A stretch of 64,000 bases of DNA from Candidatus Vogelbacteria bacterium RIFOXYD1_FULL_44_32 (lineage in GTDB: Bacteria; Patescibacteriota; Minisyncoccia; Phycocordibacterales; XYD1-FULL-46-19), in assembly GCA_001823065.1 (NCBI GenBank), contig MHTJ01000003.1, forward strand, positions 181,460 through 245,459, written 5' to 3'. Of the stretch, positions 2,010 through 60,181 are shown in pieces (position 1 is the stretch's first letter; the number at the start of each line of letters is the position of its first letter). The position numbers were made by a program, and so were the translations under genes. The notes beneath the pieces are model-generated. The model did not search any database and was not told the origin of the DNA. It was given only the letters and a program-made list of their open reading frames with translations.

Positions 2010-4691
2010 ATGCCTCCTTTTCAAAAATTTACATCTAAAGCCCGAGAAGTTATCCGCAAGGCTCATGAGCTGGCCATTGAGCGGGGTCAAAACCATGTCA
2101 GCCCGACTCATTTGTTGGCGGCTTTACTGTTGCAGGAAGACAGCACCACGGTTTCGATTATTGAAAAGCTTGAGGTAGATAGTCTGATGCTGACCGACTA
2201 TATTTTAGACCTAATGGAAACCCCCGAGGGGGCGACCGTGGCCTCGCCCTCCTATCAGATTTATCTAACCCCAGAATTGGTCCGCATTTTTGATTCCGCT
2301 TCCAAGGTTGCTGATAGTTTAAGTGATGAATTTGTTTCGACCGAGCATTTACTTATATCACTACTTGATGTTTCGAGTGATGCCCGCGATATTTTAAATC
2401 GGTTTAAGGTTACCAAAGAGGTGGTGCTAAAGGTGGTCGAGGAACTGCGGGCCGGGGTGGTGAAGGATATTGACCAGCCCAAGAAAAATAAAGCGGTTGA
2501 AAAATTTACTCGTAATCTAACTGATTTAGCGCGGGCCGATAAGCTGGACCCAGTCATCGGTCGTGACCAGGAAATTCGACGGATTATGGAAATACTTTCG
2601 CGCCGGACTAAAAATAATCCGATCTTGATTGGCGAAGCGGGCACTGGTAAAACCGCGATTGCCGAAGGGCTGGCGGTCCGGATTGCTAAAGGCGATGTGC
2701 CGGAGTCACTAAAGGATAAAGAAATTGCTTCTCTGGATTTAGGCTTGCTAATTGCTGGGACTAAATATCGGGGCGAGTTTGAGGAACGATTAAAAAATTT
2801 GATTAAGGAGATTGAACGGGCCGAAGGACGGATTATTTTATTTATTGATGAAATGCATACATTGGTCGGCGCCGGTAGTGCCGAAGGGGCCATCGACGCT
2901 TCTAATATGCTAAAGCCGGCGCTGGCGCGGGGTGAATTGCGGGTGATCGGGGCCACCACACTGAAAGAATATCAAAAACATATTGAAAAGGATCAGGCCC
3001 TGACTCGGCGGTTTCAACCAATTCACGTCGAGGAGCCCACCGTGGAAGACGCGACAGCTATTTTGCGGGGCTTGAAGGACCGTTATGAAATCCATCATGG
3101 GGTACATATTACTGACGATGCTATTATATCCGCGGTCAATTTATCTTCACGTTATATTACCGATCGTTTTTTACCCGACAAAGCCATCGACTTGATCGAT
3201 GAAGCGGCGTCGGCCCTTCGGCTACAGTTAGAAAATAAACCGGCCGCGCTGGAAGACGCCGAGCGTAAAATTATGCGTCTGGAAGTTGAAAAAGAAGCGA
3301 TGAAAAAAGAAGTCGAGATCAATGACGACTCGACCGCTAAAACGCGGATTAAGGATATTGAGCAAGAAATTGGCAATTTGAAAGAAAAAACCTCGGAGCT
3401 GGAATTGCGCTGGAAAAATGAGAAGGAAATAATCGGCGAAGTGCGCGCTGACAAAGAAAAACTAGAGGGACTACGGCTCGAGGCCCAACAGGCCGAAATT
3501 CATGCCGAATTGACCAGAGCAGCCGAAATACGCTATGGCGAGATTCCGGTGCTAGAAAAGGAGATTAAGACCAAAGAAGCCAAATTAAAACGGTTGCAAA
3601 GCCAGCGGCGGATTTTAAAGGAAGAAGTGACCGAGGAAGAGATTGCCCGAGTGGTCGCCCGTTGGACGGGTATACCAGTGGTCCGCATGCTTGAAGAAGA
3701 AGCGGATAAATTGGCGCGGATGGAGGATGGACTAAAAGGTAAAGTGCGGGGCCAAGACGATGCGATTGAGAAAATTTCGGCCGCGGTCCGCCGGAGCCGG
3801 GCGGGTATTTCTGACCCCGACCGACCGATTGGTTCGTTTATTTTCCTTGGGCCAACCGGTGTCGGTAAGACCGAGCTCGCGAAAAAATTGGCGGAATTTA
3901 TGTTTAATGATGAAAAATCTTTAATCAGAGTGGATATGTCGGAATATATGGAAAAATATTCCGTGTCTAAAATGATTGGCGCCGCGCCGGGCTATGTCGG
4001 CTACGATGAGGGTGGGGCGCTCACTGAGCTGGTGCGCCATCGACCATATTCAGTTTTACTCTTTGATGAGATTGAGAAAGCTCATCCGGAGGTGTTTAAT
4101 ATATTATTGCAAGTTCTCGATAATGGCCGATTGACCGACTCGAAAGGACGGGTAGTGAATTTCAAAAATACCGTTATCATCTTGACTTCCAATTTGGGTA
4201 GTCAGTTTATGAACCGGTTTCAAAAGATTGGTTTTGGGACTGGTGGCGAAGAAGCGCAGTTTAGCGAAGTTAAAGAAAAAGTCATGGATACAGTTAAAGA
4301 AAGCTTCAAGCCGGAATTTTTGAATCGCCTCGATGATATTATTATTTTCAACCCGCTAAACGCCGAAGTAATACGCGATATTGTATCGATTCAACTAGAT
4401 ATCGTGCGTAAACGGCTTTTATTGAAAGGAATTAAGCTAGAAATTTCGGATGAGGTAGTTTCCTATTTAGCGAAGGAGGGATTTAATCCCGAGTATGGGG
4501 CCCGACCGCTAAAACGGCTGATTCAAAACCGCATTCTCAATAAAGTGGCGGAGTTTATTATTTCGCGGCGAGTGGAAAATGGGGGGATTGTGAAAGTCTC
4601 CATTCGCGACAACGAACCAGTCATTGAACTCAAAAAAAGCTATAGTGTGCGTGGTGGCAAGAAGACCAATGAGTACACGCAGACGGTGTAG
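2010..4691 (+). CDS. clpB: ClpB chaperone (AAA+ disaggregase)
   Basis: 893 aa. It has the Clp N-domain repeats, a D1 Walker A GEAGTGKTAIAEGLA, a long coiled-coil middle domain, a D2 Walker A GPTGVGKTELAK and the sensor-2 motif GARPLKR. Confidence 0.92.
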   Translation: MPPFQKFTSKAREVIRKAHELAIERGQNHVSPTHLLAALLLQEDSTTVSIIEKLEVDSLMLTDYILDLMETPEGATVASPSYQIYLTPELVRIFDSASKVADSLSDEFVSTEHLLISLLDVSSDARDILNRFKVTKEVVLKVVEELRAGVVKDIDQPKKNKAVEKFTRNLTDLARADKLDPVIGRDQEIRRIMEILSRRTKNNPILIGEAGTGKTAIAEGLAVRIAKGDVPESLKDKEIASLDLGLLIAGTKYRGEFEERLKNLIKEIERAEGRIILFIDEMHTLVGAGSAEGAIDASNMLKPALARGELRVIGATTLKEYQKHIEKDQALTRRFQPIHVEEPTVEDATAILRGLKDRYEIHHGVHITDDAIISAVNLSSRYITDRFLPDKAIDLIDEAASALRLQLENKPAALEDAERKIMRLEVEKEAMKKEVEINDDSTAKTRIKDIEQEIGNLKEKTSELELRWKNEKEIIGEVRADKEKLEGLRLEAQQAEIHAELTRAAEIRYGEIPVLEKEIKTKEAKLKRLQSQRRILKEEVTEEEIARVVARWTGIPVVRMLEEEADKLARMEDGLKGKVRGQDDAIEKISAAVRRSRAGISDPDRPIGSFIFLGPTGVGKTELAKKLAEFMFNDEKSLIRVDMSEYMEKYSVSKMIGAAPGYVGYDEGGALTELVRHRPYSVLLFDEIEKAHPEVFNILLQVLDNGRLTDSKGRVVNFKNTVIILTSNLGSQFMNRFQKIGFGTGGEEAQFSEVKEKVMDTVKESFKPEFLNRLDDIIIFNPLNAEVIRDIVSIQLDIVRKRLLLKGIKLEISDEVVSYLAKEGFNPEYGARPLKRLIQNRILNKVAEFIISRRVENGGIVKVSIRDNEPVIELKKSYSVRGGKKTNEYTQTV

Positions 4692-4876: not shown

Positions 4877-4903
4877 CAAAAAATCCCCGTTAGGGGATTT
4901 TGT

Positions 4904-5033
4904 GCGCCGGGAGCAAAGCACCTGCGTGCTTTGCGTCAGGATTCGAAAGACTTTTCGTTATCAAATATTTGCTAAGAATATTTGGTCGAAAAGTACTCGC
5001 CCCCGTAGGGGGAGAATCCTGCCCGGCGCACCA
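4904..5033 (+). ncRNA. tRNA-adjacent structured element E1 (candidate tRNA-mimic RNA ending in CCA)
   Basis: The 5' end GCGCCGG pairs with the 3' end CCGGCGC-A-CCA. The 3' terminal 17 nt copy the tRNA-Tyr 3' end. Internal 9-bp hairpin GCAAAGCAC-CTGC-GTGCTTTGC. Helix CTTTTCG/CGAAAAG. Conserved CGCCCCCGTAGGGGGAGA. It is homologous to E2 at 57844-57963, with compensatory changes in both helices. Confidence 0.5.
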
Positions 5034-5061
5034 ATGATACTTTATGTGTTATTATAAATAA

Positions 5062-5832
5062 ATGAAGAAAATAGTAAAAAGAAGAAAAATACTAATTCTC
5101 GGGTTAGGTATTATCCTTTTCGGATTATTGCTAGGGTACCGATTTATTTCCAGAGAAACCATTCCTTTGTCTATATATAAGGGTGAGTTTGGAGACTCCC
5201 GAGACAATCCTCAAGGGATAAGAAAAGTTCAAGGTAAATACATAAATTTGGATTCTAAAAACAAGCTATACAAAAGCAAGGATTTAGGAATATCAATCAT
5301 TGTCCCAGCAGATTATACTGATTCAACATCTGCAAATGATGATAACTCTGCATACTATGAGCGCCCTAATGGCGATTTTGCTTACACAACTTATAGACTG
5401 TTTCGTCCTTTAGAAAGTCAGAAAGATCAAAATGAGCTTTTATTTGTCTACCAAGGCATCAACATCTATAAAGCGGCTGTTAGGGAAGATAAAAACACAT
5501 TAGCATTGATTCAGAGTGGGGATAATTTTTATGATATTAATAATTCAATGTGGAGTCCTGAAAGACAAAAAATTAATAGTTATCTTAAACAGACAAATTA
5601 CAAAGTCTCATTAGTTAATATTGGAAATAAAAAATTTATTAAAGTAAGCTATGGCTTGTCTTACTGTTATGAAGGACCTTGCCCAGATGAAAACATCCAC
5701 TTCTATACGCTTAATAATAGGGGTGATATTTATTATGATATTAGTTATACGTCCTTCGAGACAAATACACCATGGCTTGTGCAAAAAGCAGAATATGAAA
5801 AAATCATTAAAAGTATTAAAATAATCGATTAG
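5062..5832 (+). CDS. Hypothetical protein with N-terminal signal anchor, AT-rich
   Basis: 256 aa ORF with an N-terminal hydrophobic helix. GC is clearly lower than the flanking genes. It lies immediately after tRNA-Tyr and E1. Confidence 0.55.
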   Translation: MKKIVKRRKILILGLGIILFGLLLGYRFISRETIPLSIYKGEFGDSRDNPQGIRKVQGKYINLDSKNKLYKSKDLGISIIVPADYTDSTSANDDNSAYYERPNGDFAYTTYRLFRPLESQKDQNELLFVYQGINIYKAAVREDKNTLALIQSGDNFYDINNSMWSPERQKINSYLKQTNYKVSLVNIGNKKFIKVSYGLSYCYEGPCPDENIHFYTLNNRGDIYYDISYTSFETNTPWLVQKAEYEKIIKSIKIID

Positions 5833-23117: not shown

Positions 23118-23140
23118 CTAGGAGTTTTTTGTAAAAAACG

Positions 23141-23262
23141 ACGAGACTGTCCGGCTTGGAATCGAACAGGAGTGGGGTCGGGAGAACATATGGTCTCCCG
23201 TGGAGGAAGGATTGGGAAAACCGAGGGTTTCCCAGGGGTGAGATATCCAAGTCCGGTAGCCA
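23141..23262 (+). ncRNA. Diverged tRNA-adjacent structured element E3 (same family as E1/E2), ending ...TCCAAGTCCGGTAG-CCA
   Basis: The 5' part GTCCGGCTTGGAATCGAAC is the reverse complement of the tRNA-Gln 3' end. The 3' part copies the tRNA-Gln 3' end plus CCA. Internal GTCGGGAG... and GGGAAACC/GGTTTCCC-AGGGG-GAGA-ATCC resemble the E1/E2 core. Confidence 0.3.
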
Positions 23263-23279: not shown

Positions 23280-23630
23280 ATGCTTAGCTTAAATACAATC
23301 ATGAAAAATAATTATGGTTTACCAAAAACAGAATTGCAAAAAATCTTTGAAAGAGACAAGGTTTGTGTCTACTGTAAAAAGAAAATGCTTGGACACATTT
23401 CAGATAACCCTCGTAGCGATTGGTATACTATTGAGCATTTAAATTATTTGCCACCATGGAATAACCCAAGCACCGTTACTATTTGTTGTTGGGGTTGTAA
23501 CTCTAGTCGTGGAAATAAAAAGATTAGGGATTGGTTTAAAACCCCTTATTGTTTAGATAAAAATATTAATGAAAAAACCGTATCAAAGTTTGTGTATAGA
23601 TATATATCAGATGTTGAGGATAGGAAATAA
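23280..23630 (+). CDS. HNH endonuclease, AT-rich
   Basis: CVYCKKKM...TIEHL...ICCWGCNSSRGNK gives the CxxC...H...N...CxxC HNH pattern. About 33% GC. Confidence 0.6.
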   Translation: MLSLNTIMKNNYGLPKTELQKIFERDKVCVYCKKKMLGHISDNPRSDWYTIEHLNYLPPWNNPSTVTICCWGCNSSRGNKKIRDWFKTPYCLDKNINEKTVSKFVYRYISDVEDRK

Positions 23631-51137: not shown

Positions 51138-51443
51138 ATGAAAGCCACTACTAAAAATATAATTATTTATGCGGTTTTGGTTCTTATTATTGCCAGTAGT
51201 TCTACTTATGTGTGGTGGAGGGCGAGGGTCCAACCCGATCAGGTGTTGGCGCGGATTGAGGCCAAATTGGTAACTTTTGAGCAAGAAATAGCTGTCTGTA
51301 AGAAGGAAACAGAGGTAAAAAAACTAGAAAAATGTAGTGACCGGATGAAGGAAATTTCCACAGAGCTTGATAATTTCCAAACTGATTTGACTGGGATTAA
51401 GACAAAAAAAGAAACAGCCAGCACGACAGATAAAATTAAATAA
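51138..51443 (+). CDS. Small anchored coiled-coil protein, hypothetical
   Basis: TM plus coiled coil. Followed by a terminator. Confidence 0.4.
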   Translation: MKATTKNIIIYAVLVLIIASSSTYVWWRARVQPDQVLARIEAKLVTFEQEIAVCKKETEVKKLEKCSDRMKEISTELDNFQTDLTGIKTKKETASTTDKIK

Positions 51444-51446
51444 CCC

Positions 51447-51479
51447 AAAAAAACCGGCTTCGGCCGGTTTTTTTGGGTT
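51447..51479. terminator. Bidirectional terminator
   Basis: AAAAAAACCGGC-ttcg-GCCGGTTTTTTTGGG. Confidence 0.85.
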
Positions 51480-51481
51480 TG

Positions 51482-51553
51482 TGCTCTCGGCCGGAGTCGA
51501 ACCGGCATTACCAGCTTCGGAGGCCAGCGTTCTATCCATTAAACTACGAGGGC
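51482..51553 (-). tRNA. tRNA-Arg (anticodon CCG)
   Basis: The reverse complement reads GCCCTCGTAGTTTAATGGATAGAACGCTGGCCTCCGAAGCTGGTAATGCCGGTTCGACTCCGGCCGAGAGCA. Anticodon loop CUCCGAA. T-arm GCCGGTTCGACTCCGGC. One C:A mismatch and two G:U pairs in the stems. Confidence 0.7.
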
Positions 51554-51568
51554 AAATAGTATTGTTTA

Positions 51569-52345
51569 CTAATTATTAGGTAAATTTTTAAAATCTCCGC
51601 TAGTCAGAATATAAATCAAGAGAATAAAACATACAATAGAAACAATTATTAAACTTATAATCCCTACATTAATTGATAGAATAATTAATAATAATAGATA
51701 AATTATTTGGGTAAATTGTGACCATTTTTTTCTTTTTACAATGCCTATTATTGTTATGATCGAAATAATTAACGAAAATATAATACTAACGAAAATCAAT
51801 AACGGATATAATTCGATACCATATCTAAAACTATAAGTCATCATCGATAAAGCCATAATTAATGAAAATATAAAAAACCAGACATCTAAAACTAAAATTG
51901 CTTTAGCCCCTTTAGGTATGCCGGCATAGGTGGGTATATTTTCACCTATTTTTTCTGCTGTAAATAAACCCCAAAGTAGACATATTAAAGAAATTAATAC
52001 AGAGAATCCGATAAATGGCCAAACAACAAAAATAGCAAGAAATCCACCGCCAAACTCACTAGAGTTAATAATCAATATTGAGAGGAAAGATCCTACAAAA
52101 GACAACCAACAAAACACCATGGAAAGTTTATAGGATAATTTATCAAATTGGATATCAGAAAATAATGCCAGGGAGTATATAATTGTAAAAAAAATCAATA
52201 ATGCCAGGGGAATATTTATATTTGGATTTTCCAGCCACCTCGGTACTGGCTGGGAATGTCCAATAATCTCATAAATAATAGACAAGATAAGTAAAACAGC
52301 AACCAAAAGATAATTAAACAAAAAATTTATTTTACTTTTTAACAT
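51569..52345 (-). CDS. Polytopic membrane protein, very AT-rich (about 28% GC), hypothetical
   Basis: Seven to eight hydrophobic helices. The start was moved to the internal Met (MLKSKINF...), because the listed N-terminus overlaps tRNA-Ala. Confidence 0.55.
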   Translation of the reverse strand: MLKSKINFLFNYLLVAVLLILSIIYEIIGHSQPVPRWLENPNINIPLALLIFFTIIYSLALFSDIQFDKLSYKLSMVFCWLSFVGSFLSILIINSSEFGGGFLAIFVVWPFIGFSVLISLICLLWGLFTAEKIGENIPTYAGIPKGAKAILVLDVWFFIFSLIMALSMMTYSFRYGIELYPLLIFVSIIFSLIISIITIIGIVKRKKWSQFTQIIYLLLLIILSINVGIISLIIVSIVCFILLIYILTSGDFKNLPNN

Positions 52346-52362
52346 ATTTTTTATGTTTCTCT

Positions 52363-52438
52363 TGGTGGACCCTATCGGATTCGAACCGATGACCTCCTCA
52401 TTGCAAATGAGGCGCTCTACCAACTAAGCTAAGGGCCC
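52363..52438 (-). tRNA. tRNA-Ala (anticodon UGC), CCA encoded
   Basis: The reverse complement reads GGGCCCTTAGCTTAGTTGGTAGAGCGCCTCATTTGCAATGAGGAGGTCATCGGTTCGAATCCGATAGGGTCCACCA. Confidence 0.85.
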
Positions 52439-52478
52439 AATTTAATTATAAACCTTTATAATACATCATTTTTAATAC

Positions 52479-52618
52479 CTGGCGCCTCATTTGGCAAATG
52501 AGTGTCACAAGTATTTTTCTGCTGAAAAATCTCGCGACCCCACCTCGCGCCGTCGCGCTCCGGTCTTGCACTTGGGTCCCACCCCAAGCTCACTCTACCA
52601 ACTAAGCTAAGGGCCCAA
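52479..52618 (-). pseudogene. tRNA-derived fragment/pseudo-tRNA upstream of tRNA-Ala(UGC)
   Basis: 52593-52618 is an exact 26-nt copy of the tRNA 5' end (acceptor plus D-arm), followed by an anticodon-arm-like hairpin TTGGG-GTGGGAC-CCCAA. There is no T-arm or 3' acceptor. The internal helix GATTTTTC/GAAAAATAC resembles the E1/E2 core helix. Confidence 0.4.
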
Positions 52619-52683
52619 CTTTTAACCTACACATATTAGCAATCTCGTATTGAAAAATCAATCCTGTTTGGTAGAATTGGGAT

Positions 52684-52998
52684 ATGAAAATATTTAAAGA
52701 ATTTAAAGAGTTTGCTACACGGGGGAACGTGGTGGACCTAGCTATTGGTGTCGTGATTGGCGCTTCGTTTAGCTCTATTACCAATTCTTTGGTGACTGAT
52801 ATTATTAACCCACTACTTGGTTTAGTTACCAACAAAGTAGACCTATCTGAACAGGCGATTGTCTTGCAACAAGCGGGAGCTAGTTCTACCCCCGTCATCT
52901 TGGGCTATGGCAACTTTTTGAGCAATGTTTTAAATTTTTTGATCATTTCTTTCGTTTTATTTTTGGTGATAAAACGGGTTAACAAATTGGCTAAGTAG
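52684..52998 (+). CDS. mscL: Large-conductance mechanosensitive channel
   Basis: MKIFKEFKEFATRGNVVDLAIGVVIGASF... is collinear with E. coli MscL. 104 aa. Confidence 0.9.
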   Translation: MKIFKEFKEFATRGNVVDLAIGVVIGASFSSITNSLVTDIINPLLGLVTNKVDLSEQAIVLQQAGASSTPVILGYGNFLSNVLNFLIISFVLFLVIKRVNKLAK

Positions 52999-57803: not shown

Positions 57804-57843
57804 TGGAAGAAACTCTTTTTATTTCTTCCGAGCCAATGTTGTT

Positions 57844-57963
57844 TGGTGGACCCACGGGGAGTCTCCCCCTACGGGGGCGGGTACTTTTCCGTCTCATTTC
57901 ATTCGACAAGGAAAAGTCTTTCGACTTCCCGACGTGAGTGAAGCAGTTCACTCACTTGGGCCC
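57844..57963 (-). ncRNA. tRNA-adjacent structured element E2 (homologue of E1), ending ...CCCCGTGGGTCCA-CCA with a G3:U70 acceptor
   Basis: The reverse complement reads GGGCCCA-AGTGAGTGAA-CTGC-TTCACTCAC-GTCGGGAAGTCGAAAGACTTTTCC-...-GGAAAAGTACCCGCCCCCGTAGGGGGAGACTCCCCGTGGGTCCACCA. The ends are copied from, and complementary to, the adjacent tRNA-Ala(GGC). Confidence 0.5.
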
Positions 57964-58005
57964 ACCCTACAAAAATGGCTCACCGAAAGATCGGTTAGCT
58001 CATTT

Positions 58006-58076
58006 TTGTAAGTGTGGACCCACGGGGAGTCGAACCCCGGACTCGTCCATGCCATGGACGCGTGTTACCACTATAC
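58006..58076 (-). tRNA. tRNA-Ala (anticodon GGC), G3:U70 present
   Basis: The reverse complement reads GGGCCCATAGTATAGTGGTAACACGCGTCCATGGCATGGACGAGTCCGGGGTTCGACTCCCCGTGGGTCCA. Anticodon loop AUGGCAU. Confidence 0.8.
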
Positions 58077-59590: not shown

Positions 59591-60181
59591 ATGTATAAAA
59601 ATAAAATACTGGTGATATTTTCTATAATAGTATTAATAATTGTTGTACTTGGTGGTTACCTTTATACGAGCACATTACAACAATTAGTCTTTGATAACCC
59701 AGAGAATATTACGGAAGTTAAGACAGAATTTTGGGGTGATAATTATTATGGGAAAAGTGAAACATTTATAAATCCTGAATGGAAAACCTATCAAAACGAT
59801 CAATATCACTTTAAATTTGACTACCCTATACTAGGTCAGCATAAAATTAAACCCACTCTTTCAGAGAACGACCTTAGGTTTGAGCTTATACCTTTTAATT
59901 CGTCTCTAAGAGTAAGTAAGGTGGGAAAAGTAGACATAGACGACTATGTTCGTTCTAATAGTTGGGACGAAACGAGCTTCAATAAAGTTACATTTAAAGG
60001 AATTGAAGCATATGAAGGTGTTGATGGTGGTATGGACAGCTCATATATTATTGTTTTTATAAAAGATGACTATTTATACAAATTTAGTTTTACTGGTATA
60101 GGAACAACGATTGAAGAGTTAAAATCTGAGCTTAACCCTGAGCACAAGCGAATATTATCAACGTTTGAGTTTATTAACTAA
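59591..60181 (+). CDS. Hypothetical anchored protein, AT-rich
   Basis: N-terminal TM. No family recognised. Confidence 0.45.
   Translation: MYKNKILVIFSIIVLIIVVLGGYLYTSTLQQLVFDNPENITEVKTEFWGDNYYGKSETFINPEWKTYQNDQYHFKFDYPILGQHKIKPTLSENDLRFELIPFNSSLRVSKVGKVDIDDYVRSNSWDETSFNKVTFKGIEAYEGVDGGMDSSYIIVFIKDDYLYKFSFTGIGTTIEELKSELNPEHKRILSTFEFIN

Follow-up and report, generated by a model that had tools for sequence, protein, structure and literature searches.

What is represented by a partial tRNA gene that lies a short distance from an intact copy of the same gene? The question is raised by the tRNA-Ala(UGC) locus of Candidatus Vogelbacteria bacterium RIFOXYD1_FULL_44_32, a member of the Patescibacteria (also termed the candidate phyla radiation, CPR) from the Rifle aquifer, of which a stretch of 64 kb, referred to below as the window, was analysed. 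An initial annotation had regarded the piece upstream of this gene, named E4, either as a decayed member of a family of elements seen elsewhere in the window or as the scar of a recombination event at the tRNA. Our data suggest another answer: E4 (52484-52618, minus strand), a structured unit of about 135 nt, is probably an intact member of a phylum-wide set of structured cassettes that lie inside partial tRNA-gene duplications in Patescibacteria.

The intact tRNA-Ala(UGC), with an encoded CCA, occupies positions 52363-52438 of the minus strand, which is also the strand of all parts of E4 described below; it was called by ARAGORN and scored 73.8 bits against the Rfam tRNA model. A 26-mer, TTGGGCCCTTAGCTTAGTTGGTAGAG, occurs exactly twice on this strand, at 52415-52440 and at 52593-52618, for a chance expectation of 0. 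The displaced copy comprises a 2-nt leader, the 5' strand of the acceptor and the D-arm (tRNA positions -2 to 24), and is separated from the tRNA-Ala by 154 nt. The exact repeat of the tRNA 5' end had been recognised from the start, as had the lack of a T-arm and of a 3' acceptor strand, which was confirmed across 52440-52620. No second tRNA was detected in that interval by ARAGORN, either by default, with lowered thresholds (-ps, -ps80) or in intron mode, or by the Rfam tRNA model at E<=10, and no intron family of Rfam matched at E<=10 in 52300-52750. The view that the upstream piece derives from tRNA-Ala and is no functional tRNA is thereby supported.

Read along the minus strand, tRNA positions -2 to 24 are followed by TGAG, a hairpin designated Hx, TGCAAG, a GC-rich domain, ACTCATTTGCCAAATGAGGCGCC, an AT-rich spacer of 45 nt (52439-52483) and the complete tRNA. 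The segment after the GC-rich domain repeats positions 27/28-36 of tRNA-Ala, with nine exact bases, and closes as an anticodon-arm-like hairpin (CTCATTTG-CC-AAATGAG, 52482-52502); the true anticodon-arm copy (52486-52502) stands after the cassette. All 12 nt of CAAATGAGGCGC (52482-52493) are antisense, without mismatch, to positions 24-35 of the real tRNA-Ala (0/500 shuffles). Owing to this order of parts and to the resumed 27/28-36 repeat, the upstream unit is, judging from its sequence, a truncated tRNA-Ala copy (positions 1-24 plus 27-43) with an insert of about 83 nt, made up of TGAG, Hx, a CAAG junction and a core termed type B. The interruption comes after position 24, in the D-arm, and before position 27, in the anticodon stem. 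As a whole, E4 folds better than shuffled sequence (z = -3.5).

A hairpin with GGG in the place of an anticodon had been described as resembling an anticodon arm. This hairpin is present (Hx, CTTGGG-GTGGGA-CCCAAG, 52571-52588), but it belongs to the cassette and not to tRNA-Ala, because it accompanies the core beside tRNA-Asn and tRNA-Glu genes and at loci without a tRNA nearby. It is kept in many type-B elements regardless of the host tRNA, and in locus L176, which is discussed below, it shows a compensatory change from C-G to A-T (ATTGGG/CCCAAT).

The type-B core (52502-52573) consists of two hairpins. The first, at 52542-52564, is kink-turn-like and includes a 3-bp stem (ACC/GGT), a 1-nt bulge (G), a tandem G.A/A.G motif (GA/GA) and a 4-bp stem with a GACG loop (GCGC-GACG-GCGC). 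After a GG linker comes a 16-bp hairpin that is closed by an AGCA loop and interrupted by a bulged A (52503-52539, GGUCGCGAGAUUUUUC-AGCA-GAAAAAUACUUGUGACC). The helix GATTTTTC/GAAAAATAC, to which a likeness with two other elements of the window, E1 and E2, had been ascribed, was found as described, and the bulged-A helix GAYTTTTC/GAAAARTAC proved to be a signature common to both core types.

The type-B family, as defined in this analysis, first surfaced as GGGGTCGCGAGATTTTTCAG(C/T)AGAAAAATACTTGTGAC in unrelated genomes (L016, L052 and L075) while the family of E1 and E2 was examined. Metagenomes were scanned with a 28-nt pattern fixing most of the long hairpin, and the core was recovered in at least 120 metagenome stretches and 3 genome loci. 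Among the matches listed, 49 had a tRNA of the same strand within about 200 nt upstream of the core, 15 had one on either side and 14 had one only downstream; the others listed mostly sit near contig ends. Covariation was evaluated on an alignment of 67 distinct copies. The central pair of the 3-bp stem was represented by all four Watson-Crick types (AU 27, CG 27, UA 8, GC 3), and all four pairs of the 4-bp tetraloop stem covaried. The proportion of paired cells reached 97.4%, compared with 36-54% when the partners were slid, and there were 132 double-change cells, where shuffles gave 42.6 (0/500). On the tRNA-sense strand, but not on the other, two G.U pairs are conserved. A covariance model of the family, to whose seed alignment E4 itself belonged, matched E4 over its full length on the sense strand with 89.2 bits (E = 5.6e-20), versus 28 bits on the antisense strand, and located no copy in the window besides E4.

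The layout of E4, in which a partial copy of the tRNA 5' end stands upstream of the core (5'-type), recurs at Asn, Ser and Glu tRNAs. The 26-nt copy of E4 ends 61 nt before the anchor; the distance is 59-67 nt in the majority of the remaining 5'-type members (Ala, Asn, Ser). The tRNA copy resumes beyond the core in E4, L145 and L238, and a significant arm of 10-14 nt, antisense to the downstream tRNA, was identified in 5/9 5'-type elements (0/500 shuffles). In L185 and L234, the tRNA-Asn located 3' of the type-B core appears to be interrupted just after CCTGT in the anticodon loop; the interruption is probably the position-35/36 group I intron of PMC13011429, in which case cassette and intron would share one tRNA.

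An equivalent of E4 is found in L162 and L176, which come from another organism whose tRNA-Ala has a different, compensated T-stem. The order of parts is the same kind of succession: a tRNA 5'-end copy, TGAG, the hairpin, the type-B core, ACTCATTTGCCAAATGAGGC, a spacer and tRNA-Ala(UGC). The 5'-end copy includes 16 nt of leader there, and the repeat measures 36-40 nt. A block of 133 nt (52484-52616), corresponding to the cassette within the truncated tRNA-Ala copy, shows 95% identity between the window and L176/L162, while the flanking spacers, among them the 45-nt spacer before the tRNA, have diverged to a mostly mismatched alignment. Given this block and the full-length match of 89 bits to the family model, the family membership first proposed for E4 holds and its supposed decay does not: E4 appears to be an intact member of a family of structured cassettes. 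The E4-bearing tRNA-Ala(UGC) of L176, a gene without CCA, is followed, in addition, by an element with a core of a different type (3055-3215, plus strand), which ends in GAATCTCTTAGGGTCCACCA, a distal 3' copy with CCA.

Seven tRNAs were called concordantly by ARAGORN and Rfam in the window, and four of them carry a cassette. Elements E1 (4878-5034, plus strand, 3' of tRNA-Tyr) and E2 (57843-58013, minus strand, 3' of tRNA-Ala(GGC)) have a core of type A and end in a distal copy of the tRNA 3' end with CCA. They are the only matches to the type-A pattern in the window, with the GAAAGACUUUUC ... GAAAAGUAC helix and a 6-bp GUA-loop hairpin located 3' of a tRNA. Membership of E4 in type A was rejected: only the bulged-A helix GAYUUUUC/GAAAARU(A)C is common to both, the GUA hairpin is missing and E4 lies upstream of its tRNA. 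Element E3 (23119-23262, plus strand, 3' of tRNA-Gln) has a third type of core and an arm that is antisense to the T-arm, and ends in a distal 3' copy that carries CCA and includes a G.U-compatible change; its core nevertheless has GAGTGGGGTCGGGAGA in common with GAGGTGGGGTCGCGAGA of the type-B core.

A scan of genomes with the pattern GAAAGACTTTTC-N(10-40)-GAAAAGTAC retrieved type-A elements in at least 119 stretches, almost all of them from metagenome-assembled genomes of Patescibacteria. A tRNA ends at most about 120 nt upstream in 89 of the 131 elements listed, and every isotype is represented. The architecture begins with the tRNA, a terminator-like hairpin, an arm pairing with the acceptor 3' strand, a conserved hairpin and an arm pairing with the T-stem and T-loop; then come the core (a bulged-A helix with a variable extension and the 6-bp GUA-loop hairpin) and, last, a distal repeat of the 3' part of the tRNA. 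Covariation was again significant (337 cells vs 141 in shuffles, 0/500), and G.U was commoner than A.C on the tRNA strand in all helices. The acceptor arm pairs at 6/7 positions or more with the real tRNA in 75/89 elements. Complementarity of the arms is higher to the real tRNA than to the distal copy, since all 9/9 pairs of the T arm form with the former in 53/89 elements and with the latter in 28/89, and since the distal acceptor copy is exact in only 27/89. That the arms still pair with the real tRNA after decay of the distal repeat suggests that selection continues at individual loci. A CCA encoded in the distal copy, present in E1 to E3, was rejected as a hallmark of the family because it occurs in 8/37 members only.

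Composite arrangements were encountered in two of the genomes in which the type-B core first surfaced. In L016 (1900-2700, minus strand), tRNA-Arg(TCT) comes after two tandem units of 56 nt, each opening with the 5' 23 nt of this tRNA, and is followed by three tandem cores (B, A, A) parted by T-loop/T-stem fragments. In L052 (3450-4105, minus strand), a tRNA-Leu is followed by three different tandem cores, a fourth type with a UC-AGCA-GA hairpin tip, then A and B, nested between T-loop halves.

The two core patterns together gave more than 240 matches listed, and those with a taxonomic label were almost all from Patescibacteria. With four of seven tRNAs concerned in the window, the cassettes thus make up a large and, apparently, so far unannotated part of the tRNA loci of a phylum noted for minimal genomes and unusual RNA biology. 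A partial duplication of the end of the host tRNA characterises the family, as does, in many members, an arm antisense to the real tRNA. They explain 'pseudo-tRNA' fragments, may add to contig breaks at tRNAs in CPR assemblies and deserve to be modelled in annotation pipelines. A search of the window with Rfam 15 (4227 families) at the gathering threshold returned only the seven tRNAs. At E<=10, E1, E2 and E4 gave matches at chance level only, the best being LOOT with 23.5 bits (threshold 46.4), a weak match on E1 that reflects hairpin similarity only; on 20 related loci, Rfam identified only tRNAs, rRNAs and one unrelated LOOT RNA. The latter, in L151 (339-459, minus strand), is a bona fide LOOT RNA (RF03000, 82 bits) about 1.9 kb from a type-B core and seems to have no relation to the cassettes. 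Such elements were found nowhere described in the open literature, subscription-only papers being outside that search, and the family, a large one, is apparently undescribed across Patescibacteria. The nearest published case is that of group I introns within patescibacterial tRNA genes (PMC13011429), which are a different thing.

Both points of insertion fall into the two most conserved blocks of tRNAs, GGTAGAG in the D-arm and GTTCGA in the T-loop. Several observations speak for a historical mobility of the cassettes. The closest relative, L005 (85% identity at Ddl), has a tRNA-Ala identical over the 48 nt present on its contig (5' part) and is without E4. Moreover, the same tRNA carries different type-A subtypes in different genomes and the same subtype is found at different tRNAs, cores form tandem arrays, and the duplications include leader or trailer sequence beyond the tRNA end. 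In the case of mobility, the cassettes would represent a new kind of insertion that hits the two most conserved tRNA blocks and preserves the gene by duplicating its end.

The sequences around E4 also contain promoter-like sites. Upstream of the displaced fragment, TTGATT-17 nt-TAATAT (52633-52661, minus strand) aligns with TTGCCT-17 nt-TATTAT upstream of the uninterrupted tRNA-Ala of L005. On the basis of this alignment of -35 and -10 boxes, the displaced fragment appears to retain the ancestral promoter of the tRNA. At the end of the cassette, TTGCCA (52492-52497) is followed at a spacing of 18 nt by a -10-like AAAAAT (52468-52473); because the arrangement recurs in L176 (TTGCCA-18-TAAAAT), the motif TTGCCA-18 nt-(A/T)AAAAT could be a candidate promoter for the intact tRNA-Ala. 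The promoter-like site of the MscL gene, TTGAAA-16 nt-TAGAAT (10/12 matches, 52650-52677, plus strand), overlaps the presumed ancestral tRNA-Ala promoter back to back.

A scenario can be proposed in which tRNA-Ala underwent a duplicative insertion at the D-arm box GGTAGAG, from which a broken and an intact copy of the gene resulted, while the 3'-type elements E1 to E3 would have arisen by the same event at the conserved T-loop box. The geometry of repeats and promoters fits a Campbell-type integration, by single crossover, of a small circle bearing a tRNA fragment; a very long target-site duplication would fit as well. The ancestral tRNA promoter would then drive transcription of the fragment and the cassette, on the tRNA strand, into a structured RNA, by themselves or as part of pre-tRNA-Ala, whose leader of 178 nt they would form, and cleavage by RNase P at position +1 of the tRNA would free the cassette RNA. 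The kink-turn-like motif and the invariant bulged-A hairpin would probably serve as a platform for binding a protein or a ligand, and the 12-nt antisense arm could pair transiently with the nascent tRNA. Should the cassettes be functional RNAs, they would be signs of tRNA processing or regulation at a level not known so far, or of a ribonucleoprotein still unknown.

Several points weigh against this interpretation. No recombinase, transposase or reverse transcriptase consistently adjoins the elements. The search patterns fixed much of each core, and core invariance was in part imposed by the search, especially that of the long type-B hairpin, most of which was fixed by the pattern. The antisense arm is missing from 4/9 5'-type elements. 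The 95% identity with L176 could mean independent insertions of one element lineage instead of purifying selection on an inherited locus. Transcription of E4, its release by RNase P and the existence of any binding partner are all deduced, and the scenario does not account for the way in which cassettes gain arms specific to the host tRNA.

It is unlikely, in our opinion, that the cassettes are purely selfish DNA repeats, comparable to miniature inverted-repeat transposable elements (MITEs), repetitive extragenic palindromes (REPs) or BOX elements, with hairpins whose sole use would be in mobilisation, as single-stranded DNA, through a trans-acting enzyme, and with an RNA of no use to the cell. 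Such an explanation would account for their multi-copy and modular character, their tandem or nested arrays, their variable presence between close relatives and the scattering of subtypes over different tRNAs; the flanking direct repeats resemble target duplications, with a distal copy that is often decayed, and G.T pairs are tolerated in single-stranded DNA hairpins too. However, no transposase or HUH nuclease is linked to the elements. Neither the exact type-A nor the exact type-B core pattern had any match (0) in 2.9 million viral contigs, which argues against selfish spread and led to the rejection of a phage origin. No near-identical copies at separate loci within one genome were seen, tandem duplicates excepted, contrary to what a recent burst would give. 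The elements always lie on the strand of the tRNA transcript, the nucleotides of junctions and loops are near-invariant across very diverse lineages of the phylum, and the arms remain complementary to the real tRNA in spite of distal decay. No terminal inverted repeats were noticed on reading E4, whose flanking repeat has 26 nt, no systematic search for such repeats having been made.

The same balance appears when the cassettes are compared with REPs and bacterial interspersed mosaic elements, BOX, Correia and MITE-like elements. These are also short, non-coding, multi-copy, hairpin-rich and modular, occur in tandem arrays and vary in presence between relatives; the cassettes differ from them by their attachment to the tRNA strand, their host-tRNA-specific arms, their flanking duplications of 18-40 nt, in place of short target-site duplications, and the conservation of their cores at the scale of a phylum.

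A further proposal, distinctly doubtful, considers the cores as sensors of metabolites or proteins and the host-specific arms as expression platforms, the whole being a modular cassette that gates how individual tRNAs fold and mature and spreads between tRNA genes by duplicative insertion at the D-arm and T-loop boxes. A stricter version, restricted to a riboswitch-like leader in which the core senses a ligand or protein and the antisense arm, by pairing with the decoy copy or else by invading the nascent tRNA, gates the folding and maturation of tRNA-Ala, is quite improbable. It would agree with a helix junction that combines invariant joining nucleotides and variable distal stems, with an antisense arm flanked, in 3'- and 5'-types, by two alternative sense partners (the element and the real tRNA), with the 5'-type order of transcription (sensor, switch, target) and with tandem cores, as in tandem riboswitches. 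On the other hand, neither ligand nor partner is known, four of the nine 5'-type elements have no such arm, the tRNA of 3'-type elements is transcribed before the element with a terminator-like hairpin between them, and there is no precedent.

Two groups of known RNAs resemble parts of the cassettes as we interpret them, that is, as structured inserts in partial tRNA duplications. In the tRNA-like domain of transfer-messenger RNA, in YrlA/Y RNA and in mascRNA, a part of the molecule copies the acceptor or arms of a tRNA, plausibly recruiting RNase P, RNase Z or the CCA-adding enzyme, and the arms and distal copy of 3'-type elements can likewise form an acceptor/T-stem mimic, sometimes ended by CCA. 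The cassettes, however, mimic the neighbouring tRNA locus by locus and have no Rfam match, and E4 is without an acceptor 3' strand. Archaeal box C/D guides hosted by tRNA introns (pre-tRNA-Trp) may offer an analogy, since they, too, associate a kink-turn-type motif with a segment complementary to the tRNA of their own transcript; E4 differs from them by the lack of a C/D box consensus, by its bacterial host and by a tandem G.A motif with a bulge of 1 nt instead of 3 nt. In general, the cassettes can be placed among tRNA-targeted insertions and structured repeat RNAs, with a real chance that they are something categorically new.

A partial tRNA duplicate beside an intact tRNA is a classic signature of integrative elements. 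E4 might thus be a decaying tRNA pseudogene or attachment (att) scar, left as an eroding fragment when a site-specific recombinase inserted at tRNA-Ala an island with the AT-rich membrane-protein gene located on the other side of the tRNA. Apart from this resemblance, the compositionally foreign nature of the open reading frame (ORF), its absence from relatives and the rearrangement of the locus relative to them would be in line with such an event. The repeat, however, is that of the 5' and not of the 3' end, and its copies bracket the 154-nt element only, the membrane ORF being on the opposite tRNA side. Repeats of the tRNA 3' part with a length of at least 9 nt were absent from the relevant positions within +/-500 nt, with none bounding the ORF, and no integrase or other recombinase domain was found among the genes called within +/-10 kb. 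Furthermore, the repeats enclose a conserved structured core with hundreds of relatives and a 95%-identical equivalent in another organism. The scar hypothesis of the initial annotation is therefore largely refuted, and we regard it as highly unlikely.

Some common ground with the attL/attR sites of islands and prophages inserted by tyrosine integrases nonetheless exists: an intact tRNA with a direct repeat of a part of it, a preserved functional gene and insertion points at conserved tRNA features (the T-loop in the 3'-type, the D-arm in E4). The cassettes depart from these systems by repeats that bracket about 130-180 nt without integrase, by a conserved, covarying, RNA-like insert and, for E4, by an unusual 5'-end duplication. 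The same cores occur beside every isotype of tRNA, for which one attP would not suffice.

Finally, an interrupted or split tRNA, whose upstream 5' fragment would be an exon 1 joined to the body after removal of E4 and the proximal copy, is scarcely credible and was rejected along with the intron hypothesis, despite the abundance of tRNA introns in Patescibacteria (PMC13011429) and the restriction of CCA to the distal 3' copies in E1 to E3, because the canonical tRNA-Ala is contiguous (73.8 bits) and such contiguous tRNAs are always intact, introns do not duplicate exon sequence, no group I or II intron matched at E<=10, the distal copies are often decayed (exact acceptor in 27/89) and distal CCA is found in 8/37 members only. 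The group I introns of PMC13011429 share the phylum and the host genes of the cassettes and are likewise structured RNA insertions overlooked by standard annotation. They are located in the anticodon loop, match the Rfam group I models, exceed 200 nt and do not duplicate exons, whereas E4 matches none of these models, is external to the functional tRNA and is bordered by 26 nt of duplicated tRNA sequence.

The membrane-protein gene had been described as a low-GC, polytopic gene between two minus-strand tRNAs, and this description holds. The ORF (51569-52345, minus strand; ENA/JGI and NCBI gene calls, A2571_02420) encodes 258 aa, with a grand average of hydropathy (GRAVY) of 1.29 and about 7-8 hydrophobic spans, and is located between tRNA-Ala(UGC) and tRNA-Arg(CCG) (51481-51553, minus strand; CCA not encoded; ARAGORN and Rfam). 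An overlap of its N-terminus with tRNA-Ala was not sustained: only the maximal ORF with a TTG start (51569-52423) overlaps, and the public calls begin at the ATG at 52345. Its GC content of 27.5% and its GC content at third codon positions (GC3) of 23.9% are the lowest of the 49 ORFs of the window (z = -3.3 and -2.7, respectively). The ORF begins 17 nt past tRNA-Ala and stops 15 nt ahead of tRNA-Arg, and the sole terminator-like hairpin scored between the tRNAs is on the opposite strand; this spacing and the strand of the hairpin suggest that the ORF is co-transcribed with both tRNAs in a tRNA-punctuated transcript. A bidirectional terminator hairpin (51442-51479) follows tRNA-Arg(CCG).

No Pfam match at E<=1 and no PHROG match was obtained for this protein, which matched only itself among 5.8 billion clustered proteins. 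A search of 1.84 billion representative proteins retrieved one distant homologue, with 31% identity along 181 aa (E = 3e-9) and a common motif SSEFGG...IF(V)VWP. On account of this homologue and its motif, the ORF is a real, rare accessory or orphan gene, and the suspicion of a foreign origin was strengthened by its extreme composition, by the single homologue and by its absence from the two closest relatives. The homologue is encoded on a short metagenome contig (L249), where it is AT-rich and stands between 84-nt direct repeats (105-188 and 1347-1430) that are 95% identical, 1242 nt apart, contain a hairpin and have no Rfam match; it looks like a gene cassette. These repeats are absent from the window.

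The tRNA/ORF arrangement was not shared by the related genomes compared. In the two closest relatives (85% identity at Ddl), the genes beyond a conserved pair of Ddl and a coiled-coil protein differ, the contigs end inside tRNA-Ala or tRNA-Arg in opposite orientation, and the membrane gene is absent; a relative with 64% identity has no tRNA at that site. The differing neighbours and the opposite-strand tRNAs at contig ends indicate that the arrangement is not conserved. The block 51481-52640, with the two tRNAs, the ORF and E4, forms a minus-strand island amid a long run of plus-strand genes, and the GC skew reverses its sign across it, which fits the minus-strand genes and possibly an inversion or an inserted unit. 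Together with the differences between relatives, the reversed island and skew designate the locus as a hotspot of rearrangement. No mechanistic link was found between the membrane ORF and E4. The former is probably unrelated, strain-specific cargo, wedged between two tRNAs in a rearrangement-prone segment opposite to the strand of its neighbours and probably included in the same transcript. The genes called within +/-10 kb comprise UvrA, UvrB and UvrC, a two-component system, Ddl, MscL, components of an ABC-2 transporter and a sigma factor, among others.

Minor observations concern ORFs next to the sister elements. Directly after E3 and tRNA-Gln (23280-23630, plus strand), an ORF of 116 aa displays a CxxC...H...CxxC-N pattern; the PHROG entries for HNH endonuclease and endonuclease VII match it weakly (E = 7e-5 to 4e-4), and Pfam gave no significant match. 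Its role as a mobilising enzyme was rejected, as tblastn detected no homologue near other elements in 1.6 Mb of loci. Two further low-GC ORFs without Pfam or PHROG match are located at 5062-5832 (plus strand, 32% GC), directly after E1 and tRNA-Tyr, and at 59591-60181 (plus strand, 31% GC); AT-rich orphan genes seem to gather near loci that combine a tRNA and a cassette.

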